Source: an uncultured Holophagales bacterium
Lineage (GTDB): Bacteria > Acidobacteriota > Thermoanaerobaculia > UBA2201
Direction: 5' to 3'
NCBI GenBank assembly: GCA_964603505.1
Contig: CAZRVT010000001.1
Location: 52,215-116,214 of the forward strand
DNA: 64,000 nucleotides
Part shown: piece after piece, positions 15,994-42,077 of the stretch
Numbering within the stretch: position 1 is the stretch's first letter
Layout of the letters: every line of letters starts with the position of its first letter
Position numbers and translations under genes: made by a program
The notes under the pieces: generated by a model
Databases searched by the model: none
The model's input: only the letters and a program-made list of their open reading frames with translations
What the model was told of the DNA's origin: nothing

Positions 15994-16434
15994 TCAGTGC
16001 TTCAGGAACTCGAGGCCGCCCGTGACGACGAAGGCGGCCGCGGCCAGCATCAGGATGACGGTGACGATCCGGCTGGCGTGCAGGCTGGTCTTGTAGGGGT
16101 AGACGGGCTCGATGGGCTTGCCCACGGCGAACCCCAGCTCCACCAGGACGAGCCGGAGGCCGTTGAAGGCGTGGAACCCGAAGGCCGCCAGGACCAGGAA
16201 CTCGCCGACCACGAAGACGGGGTGGCGGAGGAAGCCGCCGTCCCCCAGGAGGCGGTTCCACGGCCCGGGGCCGAACACCCGCGAGGTGGTGACGAGGATG
16301 TGGAGGAGGAAATAGGAGAGGATCCCCAGCCCGGTGACGCGGTGCAGGGTGTAGAGGTAGCGCTCCGGGCTCCAAGCCCCGCCGAACGCCCAGCCCTTGA
16401 TCCCCAGATGGTTGTCGTGGGTCTTTTGCGCCAT
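15994..16434 (-). CDS. sdhC: Succinate dehydrogenase cytochrome b subunit
   Basis: 146 aa membrane protein with heme-ligand His residues (HRVTG.., HILVT), adjacent to sdhA. Confidence 0.6.
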   Translation of the reverse strand: MAQKTHDNHLGIKGWAFGGAWSPERYLYTLHRVTGLGILSYFLLHILVTTSRVFGPGPWNRLLGDGGFLRHPVFVVGEFLVLAAFGFHAFNGLRLVLVELGFAVGKPIEPVYPYKTSLHASRIVTVILMLAAAAFVVTGGLEFLKH

Positions 16435-16511
16435 GACGGCCTCCTAAGCAGGTCGGCCTGCAGCCTTTTGGCTGCAGGCCGGAACAAAGGTTAGATTCCT
16501 GTCATCGTCAC

Positions 16512-16575
16512 GGCGGGAGAGGGCGATTCCCTCTCCCGCCGGGCGGAGTGAATCCGCCCGGTTCCACCCTCTCCC
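16512..16575. repeat. REP-like structured repeat, copy A (hairpin GGGAGAGGG..CCCTCTCCC + second hairpin + CCACCCTCTCCCC)
   Basis: cgggagagggcgattccctctcccg, then ccgggcggagtgaatccgcccgg, then ttccaccctctcccc. Paralogous to 28326-28389. Lies in the 176-bp sdhA-sdhC spacer, which also contains the hairpin cggcctgcagcc-tttt-ggctgcaggccg at 16462-16489. Confidence 0.55.
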
Positions 16576-16610
16576 CATGCGGAAACCATCCCGGCCACGC
16601 ATGGCCGGCC

Positions 16611-18335
16611 CTAGTATTTCCGCTCCACCGGCTTCCACCGCGTAATGGTCACCGGCTTGTAGTCCAGCTCGGGCCCCTTGGCCCCCTTCTTCACCAGGGT
16701 GTGTTTGAGGAACTTGGCGTCGTCGCGCGCCGGAAAGTCGCGGCGGGCGTGGCCGCCGCGGGACTCCTCCCGCGCCAGGGCCGCGGTGATCATCACCTCG
16801 GCCAGGTCGAGGAGGTTTTCCGTCTCCAGGACATTCACCAGGTTGCTGTTGTACACCTTCCCCTTGTCCGCCACGCCGATGTTGGAGAACCGCTTGCGCA
16901 GAACCGCCAGCTTCTCCAACCCTTCCCGCATCTTCTTCCCTTCGCGGTAGACCCCCATGTGCTGGTCCATCAGGGTCCGCAGCGCCTCGCGGATGGCGTA
17001 GGGGTTCTCGGGGCCGTTCTGGTTGAGCACGGCGCCGAAGACCCGCTTCTCCTCCGCCTCGGCCGCCGCCGTCGGCGCCGGCGGCAGGGCGGGGTTGGTC
17101 TTCATGAACTTCACGATCTCGGTTCCACAGATGTCGCCCCAGACGAGGCACTCGGCGGTGGAGTTGCAGCCCAGCCGGTTGGCCCCGTGCATCGAGACGC
17201 AGGCCACCTCGCCGGCGGCCCACACCCCCTTGGCCTTGCAGGCGCCCCGGAGGTCGCACTCCACACCGCCCATGCTGTAGTGCGCGACGGGACGGACCGG
17301 GATGGGCTCCTTGATGGGGTCCAGGTCGAGGAATTTGATGCACACCTCGCGGATGAGGGGCAGGGCATGGTTGATGCGGTCGGCCCCCAGGTGGCGCAGG
17401 TCCAGGTGGATGTAGTCGAGTCCGTTGGGGCCGGGGAAGCCGCGCCCCTCCAGGATCTCGGTCATCTCGGCGCGGGAGACGATGTCGCGCGGGGCCAGCT
17501 CCATGAACTTGGCGGCATACTTCTCCATGAACCGCTCGCCCTTGTGGTTGACGAGGTAGCCCCCCTCGCCGCGGCACCCCTCGGTCATCAGGATGCCCGA
17601 CGGGACCAGCCCGGTGGGGTGGAACTGCAGGAACTCGGGGTCCTCCAGGTTCAGCCCGGCGCGGTAGGCGTAGGCCTGCCCGTCGCCGGTGACCGTCTGG
17701 GAGTAGGTGGTGAAGCCGTAGAGGTTGCCCAGGCCGCCGCTGGCGATGAGGAGGGCCTTGCCGCGAAGGAGGACGAACTCCCCTTGGGCCAGGTCGTAGG
17801 CCGTGAGCCCCTTGAACTGGCCGTCCTCGATGAGGATGGAGGTGACGAAGACCTCGTCGTATCGCTCGTAATTGGCGTGCCGGAGCATCTCGTCGTAGAG
17901 CGACTGCATCTCGAAGAAGCCCGTCTTGTCGGCCGCCATGGTGGAACGGGGGTAGCTGTGGCCGCCGAAGGGGCGCTGGGCGATGCGGCCGTCCGGGTCG
18001 CGCGACCACGGGAGCCCCCAGTGGTCCAGGAGCAGGATCTCCTTGGGGCTCATCTCGACGAAGAGCTCCACGGCGTCTTGGTCGGCCAGGAAGTCGGAGC
18101 CCTTGACCGTGTCCCAGGCATGGAGCTGGAAGGAGTCCCCCTCCTCCGGCCGCAGGACCGCCCCGGTCCCCCCCTCGGCGCAGACCGAATGGGCGCGCAT
18201 GATCTGCACCTTGGAGACCAGGGCCATGCGGACGGCGTCGCCCAAAGTGCGGGCGATCTCCACGGCCGCCCGCAGGCCCGCCAGCCCCGTTCCGAAAATG
18301 ATCACATCGTGGGTTTTTTCGATCACCGGCGACAC
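16611..18335 (-). CDS. sdhA: Succinate dehydrogenase flavoprotein subunit
   Basis: [19 protein letters not shown] fold, [10 protein letters not shown] with the covalent-FAD His, HYSMGG; 574 aa. Confidence 0.9.
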
Positions 18336-23116: not shown

Positions 23117-23191
23117 TCCGGCGTAGCTCAATGGTAGAGCAAGTGGCTGTTAACCACGAGGTTGGGGGTTCGAGCCCCTCCGCCGGAGCCA
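23117..23191 (+). tRNA. tRNA-Asn (anticodon GTT), CCA encoded
   Basis: Acceptor TCCGGCG/CGCCGGA (U1-A72 as in E. coli tRNA-Asn), anticodon loop CTGTTAA, T-arm GGTTCGAGCCC, 3' GCCA. Confidence 0.9.
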
Positions 23192-26758: not shown

Positions 26759-26887
26759 GGCGGAGCAGCCGCCCCCGATGAACCCGCAACCCGGCCCGGA
26801 CCGTTCCAGGCCGGGCTGTTCGCCTCGGGGAACCCCCTCAGCCCCGAGGGGAACCCTCCCGGCCCGCCGGTAACGCAGGCCGGCATC

Positions 26888-28282
26888 ATGCTTCCTGATC
26901 CCGGCGCATCCATGACCCGATCGCTGCTGAAATGGTTCCTCGTGCTCGCCGGCCTCGGCCTCCCGGCCGCCCTCCTCCCCCTCTCCGGGGACGAGGCCTA
27001 CTACTGGGAGTGCGGCCAGAACCTGGACTGGTCCTATTTCGACCAGCCCCCCCTGGTCATCTGGATGGCGCGGGGGTTCACGGAGATCCTGGGCAACACC
27101 GCCCTGGCGGTGCGGGCCCCCGCCCTCGTCTTCACGGGGCTCACGGGCCTGCTCCTGTGGGCCTGGCTGGGGGAGGCGGGCTTAGGGCTCTTCCTCGGCC
27201 TGCGGCTCCTGCCCATCGTGTTTTTCGGCTCGTTCTATCTCTCCACCGACGCGGGGCTGGTCTTCTTCTATCTCCTGTCCACCTACGCCTTCGTCCGCAT
27301 CCGCGAGGCCTCGCGGTGGCGGTGGTGGCTCCTCCTGGGGGCCGCCGGGGGACTGGGATTCCTGGCCAAGTTCCCCATCGTCCTGGCCGGGTTCCTCCTC
27401 CTCTTCATCCCCTGGAGGGGCGTGCGGCTGGCCCCGGTGCTGGCGGCCGCGGCCCTGGCGTCGGCGCTCACCGCCCCGGTGTGGGTCTACGCCCTCCGCC
27501 ACGACTGGGCCAACATCGTCTTCCAGCTCGTGGGGCGCCACCCGCGGTTGCACACCCTGGCCGGAGACCTCGCCGGCTACTGGCTCCCCCAGTTCGCCTT
27601 CGTCGGCCCCCTCCTGCTGCCGCTCGGGGCCGCGGCCGTATGGCGGGCCCGGCGCGACGACCGGCTCCTCCTCGCCGCCGGTCTCATCCCCGCGGCATTC
27701 TTCGGGCTTCTCGCCTTCCGGTCCCCCATGGCGCCCCATTGGGCGCTGCCCGGCCTCATCCCGCTGGCCGTCCTGGCCCGGCCCCGCCTCGACCGGCGGT
27801 GGCTGCGGGCCGCGCTGGCCGTCAACGCCCTCCTCATCGCGTTCCTGCTGACCCTCGTCGTCGTCCCCCACCCGTTCATCCCCCTCGCCCCCAAAGCGGC
27901 GGGGAACCTGCTGGGCCCCGACCGGCTGTGGGAGGTCCTGGTCCGCACCCGCCAGCCCGGGGAGACGCTTGCGACCGAAAGTTACAGCACGGCCGCCCTG
28001 ATGAACTTCCGCTCCGGCCGGACCGGGACGGTCCTCCTGGCGAACGCGGACCGAGGGGTGCACGGCCTCTCCTACCTGTACTGGCAGGAGGGGCTGGCCC
28101 TGGCCGGCCGCGATGTCCTCTTCGTCACCGCAAAGCCGGCGGTGCTCCGGACCCTGCCCCTGCGCTTCGAGCGGGTGGAGAGCGTGGTGGAACTGCCGGT
28201 GCGGGAGTGGGAGCGGACGATCCGAACCTATTACATCGCCCGATGCCGGGGGCTGCGGGACGAGGGGATGTTCAAGCCCTGA
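26888..28282 (+). CDS. ArnT/PMT-family (GT39/GT83) polyprenyl-phosphate-sugar-dependent glycosyltransferase
   Basis: Multi-TM protein with DEAYYWE motif in the first loop, typical of ArnT/dolichyl-P-mannose mannosyltransferase-like enzymes. Alternative start at 26912. Confidence 0.75.
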   Translation: MLPDPGASMTRSLLKWFLVLAGLGLPAALLPLSGDEAYYWECGQNLDWSYFDQPPLVIWMARGFTEILGNTALAVRAPALVFTGLTGLLLWAWLGEAGLGLFLGLRLLPIVFFGSFYLSTDAGLVFFYLLSTYAFVRIREASRWRWWLLLGAAGGLGFLAKFPIVLAGFLLLFIPWRGVRLAPVLAAAALASALTAPVWVYALRHDWANIVFQLVGRHPRLHTLAGDLAGYWLPQFAFVGPLLLPLGAAAVWRARRDDRLLLAAGLIPAAFFGLLAFRSPMAPHWALPGLIPLAVLARPRLDRRWLRAALAVNALLIAFLLTLVVVPHPFIPLAPKAAGNLLGPDRLWEVLVRTRQPGETLATESYSTAALMNFRSGRTGTVLLANADRGVHGLSYLYWQEGLALAGRDVLFVTAKPAVLRTLPLRFERVESVVELPVREWERTIRTYYIARCRGLRDEGMFKP

Positions 28283-28325
28283 CCGGCCCCCTCCCATTTC
28301 CCCCCTGCACGATCTCCCATTGAAA

Positions 28326-28389
28326 GCGGGAGAGGGGGGTTCCCATTCCCGCCCCGAGAGCGAAGCTCTCGGGGGTCCACCCTCTCCCC
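28326..28389. repeat. REP-like structured repeat, copy B
   Basis: gcgggagaggggggttcccattcccgcc, then cccgagagcgaagctctcggg, then gtccaccctctcccc. Same architecture as 16512-16575 but the middle hairpin has a different sequence with preserved pairing. Followed by hairpin ggcctgc-aatctgc-gcaggcc (28405-28425). Confidence 0.55.
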
Positions 28390-28600
28390 GCATGGAGCCC
28401 CCCTCGGCCTGCAATCTGCGCAGGCCGACCCGACAATCGGACCCCGGCCGGATAAGATCTCCAGCGGCAAAACCCGGCTTTCGGCTTCTTTCTTCCGGCT
28501 CCCGTCTACTTCTTGATCTCGATGCCGAGTTCCGTTGTCCGCCTTCCGCAGTTGACGGTTGGCGGTGAGCGGTGGACGGATTGCGGAGAGCGGCTTGCGG

Positions 28601-29998
28601 TCACTTCTTTACTTCGATCTTGAGCCGCTTGAGGATCTTGCGCAGGCCGAAGGGAGAGAGTCCCATCAGCTGGGCCGCCCGGGTGATGTTCCCGTCGGTC
28701 ATCCGCAAAACATGCTGGACCAGCCGTTCGGAGACGTCGTCCAGGATTTCGCGGTAGTTGAACCGCCCCTTGGAGATCCGGTGCGCGAGGGCTTCCTGGG
28801 CGTCGCCCGTCACCGGCGAGGCGAGCACCTTCTGCGGAAGGTGGCGCAGGTCCAGCACCTCGCCGGGATGGGCCAGGATGACGAGGGTCCGGAGAATGTT
28901 CTGCAGCTCCCGCAGGTTGCCGGGGTAGGCGTACTCCCGCAGATGGACAAGCGCCCGCCGCGCGATTCCCTCCACCGCCTTCTGCTCCTGGGCGCAGATC
29001 CGCTCGAGGAAGGCCAGGACGAACGGCTCGAGGTCGTCCCGCCGATCGCGCAGGGGGGGGATCCGCAGTTCGATGGCGGCGAGGCGGTGGTAGAGGTCCT
29101 CGCGCAGGGCCCCGGAGCGCACCAGCGCCTCCGGCTCCACCGAGGAGGCGGCCACGAGGCGGAAGTCGGTGGGGATGGAGGTGGCGGTCCCGACGGGGGT
29201 CACCGCCCGCTCCTCCAGGACCCGGAGGATCTTGGGTTGGAGGGCGGGGGAGAAGGCGTTGAGCTCGTCGAGGAACAGGGTCCCGCCGTCGGCCAGCGCC
29301 ATCTTGCCCGCCCGCTCGTCCACGCTGGTGGCCACCCGCTTCCCGATCCCGAACAGTTCCGACTCCAGGAGCTCCTGGGGCAGGGCGGCGCAGTTGACCG
29401 CCACGAGGGGGCCCGCGGAGCGCTTCCCCGAAAGGTGCAGGGTGCGGGCGAACATCTCCTTGCCGGTCCCCGTCTCCCCCACGAGCAGGACCGGGGCCGA
29501 CGACCGGGCGACGGCGTCCATCAGCTGGTACACCTCCAGGATCCGGGCCGAGCGGCCGAGGATCATCCCCTCGGGGAAGGTGAGGTTGGGAAAAAAGAAG
29601 AAGTCCTCGCGGGCCCCCACGGGCAGGGCGCCCACCGTTTCCGTGTCGATGGGGGCGACGGGCTTCAGGGGCGGCCGCCGGACGGAGACGAACTCCGCCT
29701 GGCCCTCGGGCGCCTCCCGCACCACCAGCTCCACCACCCCCACCCCCACGCGGTCGCCGGCCCGGAGGGGCGCCTCCGCCACCCGGTCCCCGTTCACGCG
29801 CGTCCCGTTGCGGCTTTCCAGGTCCTTGAGGACCCACGCGCCGTCCCGGCGGGCAAGGGTGAAGTGGTACCGGGAGACCCCCCGGAACGGGAGGACGATG
29901 TGGTTGTCGGGGTGGGCGCCCGCATGGAGGGGACGGGAACCGTCCCCAAAGGGGAAGGTCACGGTCCGCCCGGGGAGTTGCAGATCGAAAAACAGCAT
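28601..29998 (-). CDS. FHA-domain sigma54-dependent transcriptional activator
   Basis: N-terminal FHA (GR..HFTLARRDG..LKDLESRNGTRVNG), AAA+ sigma54 module (GETGTGKE, GAFTGA-like, ESELFG), C-terminal Fis-type HTH. Confidence 0.85.
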   Translation of the reverse strand: MLFFDLQLPGRTVTFPFGDGSRPLHAGAHPDNHIVLPFRGVSRYHFTLARRDGAWVLKDLESRNGTRVNGDRVAEAPLRAGDRVGVGVVELVVREAPEGQAEFVSVRRPPLKPVAPIDTETVGALPVGAREDFFFFPNLTFPEGMILGRSARILEVYQLMDAVARSSAPVLLVGETGTGKEMFARTLHLSGKRSAGPLVAVNCAALPQELLESELFGIGKRVATSVDERAGKMALADGGTLFLDELNAFSPALQPKILRVLEERAVTPVGTATSIPTDFRLVAASSVEPEALVRSGALREDLYHRLAAIELRIPPLRDRRDDLEPFVLAFLERICAQEQKAVEGIARRALVHLREYAYPGNLRELQNILRTLVILAHPGEVLDLRHLPQKVLASPVTGDAQEALAHRISKGRFNYREILDDVSERLVQHVLRMTDGNITRAAQLMGLSPFGLRKILKRLKIEVKK

Positions 29999-41811: not shown

Positions 41812-42077
41812 CATCCTGATCCCCCTGCTTCGCGCGCTTTTAGCCGTATTCCCCTGCTTGGTGCGTGTAGAGCTCCGTGCTCCTGAACCAACACTTCCGC
41901 CCCGGGATCGTTCGTGGACGACCGGGCCCGGTGATCCCCGCGGGGAACTGATGGGCCCGGCCCGAGGATCCCACCTGGCTCTGCCAGGTTCAGAGCCACC
42001 GCTCTTACGGCCGAAGCGGGGGATTTTGACCCTCTCGCCCGCTCCATAGACGGGGTCGCCTCCGCCAGGAGGTGACC

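Follow-up and report, generated by a model that had tools for sequence, protein, structure and literature searches.

Two intergenic sites in the window, by which we mean the whole 64-kb stretch of DNA that was analysed, are best explained as copies of a non-coding, hairpin-rich repeat of about 125-190 bp, which probably belongs to Holophagae-like Acidobacteriota and has spread there by insertion. We regard this repeat as a new family of the REP/BIME/MITE-like kind and not as a conserved regulatory RNA, and we infer its mode of movement; no earlier description of the family was found in Rfam or in the literature searched. The nearest named homologues of the window proteins are found in Acidobacteriota, Thermoanaerobaculia and Holophagae. 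For annotation, this means that both window sites are repeat insertions and not candidate riboswitches or small RNAs. The finding is of relevance to bacterial repeats and non-B DNA, and does not represent a new kind of system.

The core of the repeat is 64 nt long, and the two window copies, copy A (16513-16576) and copy B (28326-28389), have 36 fixed bases in common at identical spacing. A purine block, GGGAGAGGG, is followed after 5 nt by its complement, CCCTCTCCC, with which it forms hairpin H1; then come a hairpin of variable sequence, H2, and the tail, in which CCA precedes a second CCCTCTCCC. Copy A reads GCGGGAGAGGG-CGATT-CCCTCTCCCGC-CGGGCGGA-GTGAA-TCCGCCCG-GT-TCCACCCTCTCCCC, and copy B reads GCGGGAGAGGG-GGGTT-CCCATTCCCGC-CCCCGAGAGC-GAA-GCTCTCGGGG-G-TCCACCCTCTCCCC. 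The blocks of copy A are GGGAGAGGG, CCCTCTCCC and CCCTCTCCC; the middle block of copy B is CCCATTCCC, a degenerate 3' arm of H1, as the first-pass annotation had written. Both copies have the same geometry, with a 5-nt loop and 29 nt separating the second and third blocks. The features of the two sites are as follows.

16443-16446, + strand: CCTA, left direct repeat of the insert; read on the - strand, it supplies TAGG to the sdhC ribosome-binding site, TAGGAGG
16447-16609, + strand: copy A, the entire 163-nt insert between sdhA and sdhC, from alignment against four empty sites
16455-16480, + strand: copy A hairpin H0, GGCCTGCAGCC, loop TTTT, GGCTGCAGGCC, near one insert end
16513-16539, + strand: copy A hairpin H1, GCGGGAGAGGG, loop CGATT, CCCTCTCCCGC, perfect pairing
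16539-16561, + strand: copy A hairpin H2, CCGGGCGGA, loop GTGAA, TCCGCCCGG, pairing kept
16563-16576, + strand: copy A tail, TCCACCCTCTCCCC, the third GGGAGAGGG/CCCTCTCCC block
16591-16608, + strand: copy A hairpin H3, CCGGCCA, loop CGCA, TGGCCGG, at the other insert end
16610-16613, + strand: CCTA, right direct repeat of the insert; on the - strand it includes the sdhA stop codon TAG
28283-28466 (approximate boundaries), + strand: extra DNA in the spacer between the PMT_2 and sigma54-FHA genes relative to two relatives, from alignment
28316-28325, + strand: copy B conserved 5' flank, CCCATTGAAA, from alignments; its counterpart in five Holophagales UBA2201 copies is CATTGAAAGC
28326-28352, + strand: copy B hairpin H1, GCGGGAGAGGG, loop GGGTT, CCCATTCCCGC; the degenerate 3' arm includes a single G-T pair and a single A-A mismatch
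28352-28374, + strand: copy B hairpin H2, CCCCGAGAGC, loop GAA, GCTCTCGGGG; sequence unrelated to H2 of copy A, pairing kept
28376-28389, + strand: copy B tail, TCCACCCTCTCCCC, a second perfect complement of GGGAGAGGG
28390-28404, + strand: copy B linker, GCATGGAGCCCCCCT, homologous to CAT.NGGA..CCATC(C/T) of copy A, L128 and L159 (the latter two being homologous loci described below)
28405-28427, + strand: copy B hairpin H3, CGGCCTGC, loop AATCTGC, GCAGGCCG, the GGCCTGCA..GCAGGCC hairpin of the first-pass annotation; compared with L159
28428-28440, + strand: copy B 3' extension, ACCCGACAATCGG, comparable to the CGTCCCGA(C/T)TACC that follows H3 in both L159 units

The earlier annotation had placed two copies of a structured element at these positions and had described a middle hairpin that differs in sequence and still pairs, and both descriptions hold, the second for H2 as listed. 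The pattern GCGGGAGAGGG-N4-TCCC-NN-TCCCGCC-N22-TCCACCCTCTCCCC matches the window exactly twice, both times on the + strand, and was absent from 100 shuffles. By itself, GGGAGAGGG is mildly but not significantly enriched in the window (7 vs 3.3 expected; 6 of 100 shuffles reach 7). When the whole window was scanned with a covariance model with filters off, copies A and B scored 104.5 and 88.8 bits, the next match scored 15.9 bits, and no further member was found in the 64 kb. A third candidate, which a repeat search had placed at 26828-26864, is not a member, with a model score of only 13.7 bits at 26780-26868. On either strand, both copies are predicted to fold much more stably than their shuffled controls (z -2.9 to -5.0). 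The predicted fold of copy A contains H1 as a local hairpin; in the minimum-free-energy fold of copy B, where the 3' arm of H1 is degenerate, the 5' block pairs with the distal tail and H2 is enclosed.

The core is surrounded by variable modules, namely H3 and H0 in the window copies and a 60-nt long hairpin in UBA2201. The homology of copy B with other copies extends beyond the 64-nt core, from about 28316 to 28440. Hairpins of the form GGCCTGC..GCAGGCC occur in the window only at 16455-16480 and 28406-28426 (2 vs 0.05 expected). A GGCCTGCA hairpin had been said to accompany both copies; it is indeed present at both, but on opposite sides of the core, and the two are not positional homologues. 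In copy B it occupies the H3 position, 3' of the tail; in copy A, where another hairpin (CCGGCCA/TGGCCGG) stands at the H3 position, the GGCCTGCAGCC hairpin is found at the extreme 5' end of the insert. Comparison with other copies identifies the GGCCTGCA hairpin of copy B as H3, and the element extends to about 28440.

A genome scan with the pattern GGGAGAGGG N3-8 CCCNNTCCC N15-45 CCCTCTCCC returned at least 113 loci from many phyla. Among the matches listed, seven are clear homologues, recognised by common flanks and H2: L151, L159, L161, L162, L170 and L225, all from the Holophagales MAG UBA2201, and L128, on a 7-kb contig binned as Phycisphaerales. From nine sequences, the two window copies and these seven homologues, a covariance model was made, and it revealed an eighth further copy, a degenerate one that scores 52 bits and forms a tandem with the L159 copy, about 170 nt upstream of it. 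There are thus at least eight further copies, at least seven of them in UBA2201 (six 8-kb loci) and at least one in another MAG, with model scores of 52-114 bits and conserved flanks. The wider motif search and covariance model proposed in the first-pass annotation have in this way yielded further copies as well as support for covariation in H2.

Several near-identical copies are present per genome, in one case in tandem, and in both orientations relative to genes. Five UBA2201 copies have in common a unit of about 190 bp (84-98% identity), which adds a different 3' hairpin and the 60-nt long hairpin. A different 3' extension is common to the window copies, L128 and the two units of L159: the tail is followed by CAT.NGGA..CCATC(C/T)CG, then by H3 and then by CG.CCCGA. 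The upper stem of H3 is different in every copy and the hairpin is retained: CCGGCCA/TGGCCGG in copy A, CGGCCTGC/GCAGGCCG in copy B, CCGGCGTGC/GCGCGCCGG in L128, GTCCCGAC/GTCGGGAC in the downstream unit of L159 and TCCTGC/GCAGG in its upstream unit.

The hairpins are maintained by compensatory substitutions. In a ten-copy alignment guided by and fitted to the covariance model, 93% of cells are paired; for H2 the figure is 92%, with both-sided changes in six of the eight pairs. None of 500 shuffles reached the observed covariation score, and sliding the pairing partners lowers pairing to 45-59%. One type of H2 shows stepwise variants, with CCGGGCGGA/TCCGCCCGG in copy A, CCAGGCGGA/TCCGCCTGG in L170 and L225, CCAAGCGGA/TCCGCTTGG in L128 and an A-C intermediate in L151 and L162, and three other stem sequences stand at the H2 position in copy B, L161 and the upstream L159 unit. 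The three blocks were demanded by the search pattern, and therefore their invariance in the recovered copies is partly an artefact and carries little information. The stem mismatches on the + strand include both G-T and A-C, and hence give no pointer to one transcribed strand.

With flanking genes called from the codon-position GC pattern, all ten copies are apparently intergenic, L162 being an ambiguous case at one start codon. Relative to the transcription unit beside them, copy A, L162, L161, L170 and probably L159 run antisense, and L225 and L128 run in the sense direction, as copy B does with respect to the PMT_2 gene. The flanking genes of the copies are unrelated to one another. A possible common location, based on orthology of the gene upstream of L225 with the sigma54 activator of the window, was rejected, the two proteins being unrelated. 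In addition, no orthologues of window proteins were found by tblastn in the sampled 8-kb UBA2201 loci.

Both window copies lie in DNA that is missing from close relatives, and the element entered pre-existing short spacers by insertion. Copy A is located between sdhA (16611-18335, - strand) and sdhC (15994-16434, - strand), within the operon sdhA-sdhC-sdhD-sdhB. Because both genes are on the - strand, the G-rich complement of copy A is the transcribed strand and the + strand element is antisense to the operon. Four relatives were traced from SdhC homologues that are 90, 86, 76 and 73% identical (BLASTP). The gene order is identical in all four, and the sdhA-sdhC spacer is 9 nt long in each of them vs 176 nt in the window. 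The empty site of the relatives reads ...GGAAATAYTAGGAGGCCnnnATG, with a single TAGG, and the window junctions read ...GGAAATACTAGG / 163 nt / TAGGAGGCCGTCATG on the - strand. The insert (16447-16609) is bounded by the 4-bp direct repeat CCTA, an apparent target-site duplication read at this one junction pair only; on the - strand TAGG is duplicated at both junctions, one copy keeping the sdhA stop codon and the other the sdhC Shine-Dalgarno sequence. A very stable 163-nt hairpin cluster has in this manner entered an essential operon precisely where two translationally adjacent genes meet, 9 nt apart, with the stop codon and the ribosome-binding site regenerated. The insert ends, AGCAGGTCGGCC... 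and ...CATGGCCGGC, are not mutually inverted, and each has its own hairpin (H3 and H0). The whole insert is predicted to fold much more stably than shuffled versions on both strands (z = -6.9 as RNA, -7.7 as DNA).

In a matrix of pairwise identities the 90% and 86% relatives cluster with the window, and the empty site is found in them and also in the more distant members of the clade; this nested position of the window makes the insertion of copy A the derived state. The window lies on a 179-kb metagenome contig (JGI 3300037501), and the identical insert is found at the same sdh locus in a second metagenome sample. Nothing similar to the 163-nt insert was found in plasmid and phage collections.

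Copy B is located in a 318-nt spacer between the gene for a PMT_2/ArnT-like glycosyltransferase (26888-28282, + strand) and that for a sigma54 activator with FHA (28601-29998, - strand), and the gene context confirms that the two are convergent, as annotated at first. In two syntenic relatives, with PMT_2 proteins 80% and 73% identical, the corresponding spacers are 79 nt (L243) and 180 nt (L244) long and the element is missing; the covariance model had no match in about 75 kb of the relatives' DNA. The spacer of copy B has diverged from those of the relatives, so that its exact junctions and any target duplication are not readable.

The blocks are those of BoxC, a 'triplex motif' repeat also known as PIT or TM_ECO, which is attributed to Bergler 1992 and Hoyne et al. 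2000 (cited in Holder et al. 2015, PMC4666352). Its pattern, 5'-CCCTCNCCC N3-6 GGGNGAGGG N3 GGGNGAGGG-3', belongs to class II, with loops of at most 6 nt, and 3610 occurrences are known in 262 proteobacterial genomes; BoxC/PIT elements are always intergenic, without strand bias and without promoter or terminator activity, and TM_ECO is associated with local variability between strains (PMC4666352). The window element is likewise composed of the 9-nt blocks GGGNGAGGG / CCCTCNCCC, three per unit. Both kinds of repeat are intergenic, show no preference for strand or gene class, lack a promoter or terminator consensus and vary in presence among close relatives. However, the window element is arranged as R-Y-...-Y (class III; class I on the complement) and BoxC as Y-R-R (class II). 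The second spacer of the window element is 29 nt long with a hairpin of its own, in contrast to 3 nt in TM_ECO, its unit is mosaic and 125-190 bp long instead of about 36 bp, and its host is an acidobacterium and not a proteobacterium. A metagenome scan with GGGAGAGGG-N30-60-CCACCCTCTCCCC returned at least 120 loci, and among the matches listed most are CCCTCTCCC-N4-GGGAGAGGG-NN-GGGGTGAGGGG units, which are BoxC-like and often form inverted pairs. The canonical TM_ECO pattern was found in 68 of 251 other fetched loci, and neither in the window nor in the loci of the Holophagales subfamily. Repeats built of BoxC-type purine/pyrimidine blocks are thereby extended to Acidobacteriota in a new arrangement.

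It is possible, though we consider it doubtful, that the element acts as an intrastrand triplex-forming DNA of the BoxC/PIT type, a reading that is compatible with a mobile repeat. On the G-rich strand the order GGGAGAGGG(TGG), hairpin, GGGAGAGGG, 5 nt, CCCTCTCCC would be that of a class I purine-motif triplex, and the C-rich strand would belong to class III. As GGGAGAGGG is mirror-symmetric, nine perfect triads are possible (G.G-C + A.A-T, or C+.G-C + T.A-T). H2 would then serve as a folded bridge that returns the third block to the base of H1, and transient triplexes during replication would give local instability. The three blocks and their order are read straight from the sequence, the geometry (5-nt loop, 29 nt between blocks 2 and 3) is the same in both copies, and the loci with the element are variable among relatives. 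TM_ECO is made from the same blocks; its isolated single strand adopts a stable triplex in vitro, and it is linked to strain variation; however, Holder et al. detected none in duplex DNA or in vivo, and the ITxF search rules allow loops of 1-6 nt (PMC4666352), far from the 29 nt of the second loop here. The lack of canonical TM_ECO matches in the window and subfamily loci, and the degenerate middle pyrimidine block of copy B and L159, also argue against a triplex.

The first-pass annotation had taken the preserved pairing as a sign of a functional RNA or REP family. The additional copies, the compensatory changes in H2 and the intergenic positions favour the REP-like half of this proposal, and the other half is opposed by the absence from the relatives' orthologous spacers, the mixed orientation, the near-identical copies and the lack of an Rfam match. 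A functional structured RNA, either a small RNA or a cis-acting element that stabilises an mRNA, directs its processing or regulates translation of the downstream gene, with stems that covary under selection for the RNA fold, is in our view unlikely. The covariation of H2 and the very stable folds are what such an RNA would show. Conserved unpaired linkers combined with variable stems would also fit an RNA. Copy A is necessarily transcribed in the sdh operon, and in the predicted fold of the sdh transcript the sdhC ribosome-binding site pairs with a linker of the insert. However, a cis-regulatory RNA would occupy an orthologous position in a fixed orientation, and the element is missing at the orthologous positions of relatives with up to 90% (SdhC) and 80% (PMT_2) identity and runs antisense at copy A and at four or more of the others. 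Its neighbouring genes are unrelated, its copies are highly similar multi-copy repeats, and its stem mismatches show no strand preference (G-T and A-C both on the + strand). At the gathering threshold, Rfam recognised only two tRNAs and 6S RNA in the window and left the element unmatched; permissive E-value scans of copies A, B and L151 gave generic hairpins, the best of which, at 19-27 bits, fell far short of the family thresholds of 58-90.

A rho-independent terminator or attenuator at operon ends is very unlikely. GC-rich hairpins do lie between convergent genes at copy B, and clustering at operon ends had been put forward for checking on first reading, but no T-run follows any hairpin on either strand, and consensus scans found neither a T-run terminator (both strands) nor a sigma70-like promoter in or beside either copy. 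Moreover, copy A is situated inside sdhA-sdhC-sdhD-sdhB, where termination would lose three essential subunits, and BoxC/PIT elements have no terminator activity (PMC4666352). Chance similarity of GC-rich, low-complexity sequence, to which the mild enrichment of GGGAGAGGG alone might point, has a negligible probability given the composite pattern seen twice and in none of 100 shuffles and the homologous copies with conserved flanks elsewhere (52-114 bits): the two look-alike sequences are genuine copies of one small hairpin-rich repeat.

REP, BIME and REPIN elements are mobilised by RAYT transposases, which are IS200/IS605-like Y1 HUH enzymes, and neither IS200/IS605-type elements nor REPs normally make target duplications. 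The mobile repeat that we favour resembles them in several ways. It is composed of short, imperfect palindromes that lie outside genes and recur within a genome, its hairpin modules are mixed, mosaic and, in L159, tandem, its stems change by compensation, and it is found within operons and between convergent genes, with either orientation tolerated. According to Di Nocera et al. 2013 (PMC3733652), REPs carry a GTAG or CGTC tag at one palindrome end, and RAYT-like ("TIRYT") tyrosine transposase genes, of which a sharply delimited group is acidobacterial, stand between inverted repeats with the common motif GGGGWSAS. This motif is matched by the complement of the tail (GGGGAGAG; block GGGGAGAGGGTGG), a further likeness to the repeats that flank RAYT-like genes. 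In contrast to REPs, the element has no conserved GTAG or CGTC tag: CGTC is found only in copy A, 1 nt 5' of H1, and the other nine copies have ATTGAAAGC or TTTTTTC. The 4-bp direct repeat at its one well-defined insertion is also unusual for RAYT/IS200-type chemistry, and could stem from microhomology-mediated insertion instead. With MITEs, the element has in common that it is shorter than 200 bp, non-coding, multi-copy and strongly folded, and that its insertion is polymorphic, the short direct repeat CCTA marking the junctions. However, the 163-nt insert lacks terminal inverted repeats and carries a separate hairpin at each end, and therefore it is not a classical DDE-type MITE.

We suppose that the repeat spreads as a non-autonomous element whose hairpins would be recognised on single-stranded DNA, the likeliest recogniser being a HUH tyrosine transposase of the RAYT/TIRYT type, as for REP/REPIN sequences. 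The strong conservation of GGGAGAGGG and GGGGAGAGGGTGG may then reflect recognition by the transposase, the capacity to form an intrastrand triplex, or both. Effects on the host would be secondary; when transcribed, the stable hairpins could change mRNA processing or stability, or the translation of sdhC.

All ORFs of the window and of about 250 loci were searched for RAYTs, with E. coli RayT as tblastn query and with jackhmmer from two seeds. No Y1_Tnp gene was found in the window or beside any Holophagales copy (jackhmmer, two seeds), so that no RAYT in this sample is linked to the subfamily. From the protein database, a profile search retrieved RAYTs of enterobacteria and Prevotella and none of Acidobacteriota. 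The window and the roughly 250 loci contain one Y1_Tnp gene, at L152:6653-7249 (- strand) in a Prevotella MAG (Pfam Y1_Tnp E = 3.5e-10), and it has GGG(A/C)GAGGG/CCCTCTCCC repeat arrays on both sides (44 blocks in 8 kb vs 0.41 expected). This shows that genuine RAYT-associated REP sequences, here those of Prevotella, can contain GGGAGAGGG. The link from this RAYT to the Holophagales element is suggestive only. Because the Prevotella repeats have only the 9-nt block in common with that element, and because no RAYT was found in the window and no acidobacterial RAYT was returned, we infer its mobilisation.

A wider view is that the GGGAGAGGG/CCCTCTCCC blocks of E. coli BoxC, soil Acidobacteriota, Chloroflexota and Bacteroidota are one shared recognition module of a very widespread superfamily mobilised as single-stranded DNA by RAYT/TIRYT transposases, which at present seems rather unlikely to us. 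If it were true, the Holophagales element would represent a new class I/III architecture in which the third strand is brought in by a hairpin bridge, BoxC/PIT, unexplained in origin and function since the 1990s, would be REP-type mobile DNA, and its ability to form triplexes would be part of presenting the substrate to the transposase. The Prevotella RAYT with its GGGAGAGGG-containing flanks, together with the Holophagales element, offers a testable lead on the mobiliser of BoxC-type repeats. Orthologues of the Prevotella RAYT (72-73%) are present in two other assemblies, in the gene order ackA-RAYT-hsp20, and there they are bracketed by the REPIN-like sequences AACTGGGAGAGGGGGCGTCCCGCCCCCGA and TCGGGGGCGAGACGCCCCCTCTCCCAGTT.

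In the Holophagales MAG UBA2201, the core of the hairpin-rich intergenic element is part of a roughly 190-bp composite unit (L151:4567-4760, with equivalent stretches at L161, L162, L170 and L225). Each copy of this unit starts with TACCGCAGC and ends with GCATA, and the unit carries a terminal 60-nt hairpin, AT-richer than the remainder, with a 12-bp stem (TATGCTATTCCTG...CAGGAATAGCATA). A further copy, L128 (PMBX01000248.1), shares 88% identity with copy A of the window over 84 nt of the core and its 3' extension. Its contig, 7 kb long and with the copy at one end, was binned as Phycisphaerales, which reflects either a binning error or the presence of the same element in another phylum.

Copy A lies in an insert between sdhA and sdhC. 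Structure prediction for the sdh transcript (window 16435-16613, - strand) pairs the sdhC ribosome-binding site (UAGGAGGCCGUC) with the insert linker GGGAUGGUUUCC, and this predicted pairing could lower sdhC translation.

The spacer that holds copy B, between the PMT_2 gene and the sigma54-FHA activator gene, is a hotspot occupied by different repeats in different lineages. The orthologous spacer of a syntenic relative (L244:4372-4551; PMT_2 73%) contains a tandem heptamer array, (CTGTACG)n. On the other side of the PMT_2 gene, several short palindromes (GGGGAACCCC, CCCCGAGGGG and CCGGCCCGG..CCAGGCCGGG) were found in a GC-rich spacer; with a score of 13.7 bits against the covariance model of the element, it was ruled out as a family member. 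This spacer and the RNA genes of the window are as follows.

26760-26887: GC-rich spacer, 129 nt, separating the acyl-CoA dehydrogenase and PMT_2 genes
41848-42026: 6S RNA gene, 60.7 bits
3071-3144 and 23117-23188: two tRNA genes

Other repeats also occur. A second repeat family, distinct and abundant in Thermoanaerobaculia and Holophagales MAGs, consists of ccGGGAGAGGGGCGCCCCCTCCC, a variable 20-40 nt, CCCCCTCTCCCGG, about 15 nt and GGGAGAGGGGG, with numerous copies per MAG, e.g. in SMAG_U1597. Elsewhere, GGGAGAGGG-loop-CCCTCTCCC hairpin units of 27-28 nt each form head-to-tail tandem arrays, some of them adjoined by canonical BoxC-like units, and in one Gemmatimonadales MAG CCCTCTCCCCTCTCCCC runs (microsatellite-like C/T repeats) lie beside GGGAGAGGG blocks at many loci. 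Among the matches listed, these are:

At least L133, L136, L139, L168, L188, L191, L194, L208, L220 and L222: second family
L125, L153, L172, L174 and L233: 27-28-nt hairpin-unit arrays, Chloroflexi MAG JACQUR01
L186 and L200: 27-28-nt hairpin-unit arrays, Sphingomonas
L132, L147, L155, L164, L190, L205 and L227: CCCTCTCCCCTCTCCCC runs with GGGAGAGGG blocks, Gemmatimonadales MAG

In Prevotella-like MAGs, a RAYT-like gene (Pfam Y1_Tnp) is situated between ackA and hsp20 (region with flanking repeats, L152:6100-7500, L248:1461-3400 and L250:1689-2923). Arrays of REPIN-like units with GGGAGAGGG / CCCTCTCCC lie on either side of this gene, some units being preceded by GTAG or CGTC, and 8 kb of L152 contains 44 GGGAGAGGG / CCCTCTCCC blocks.
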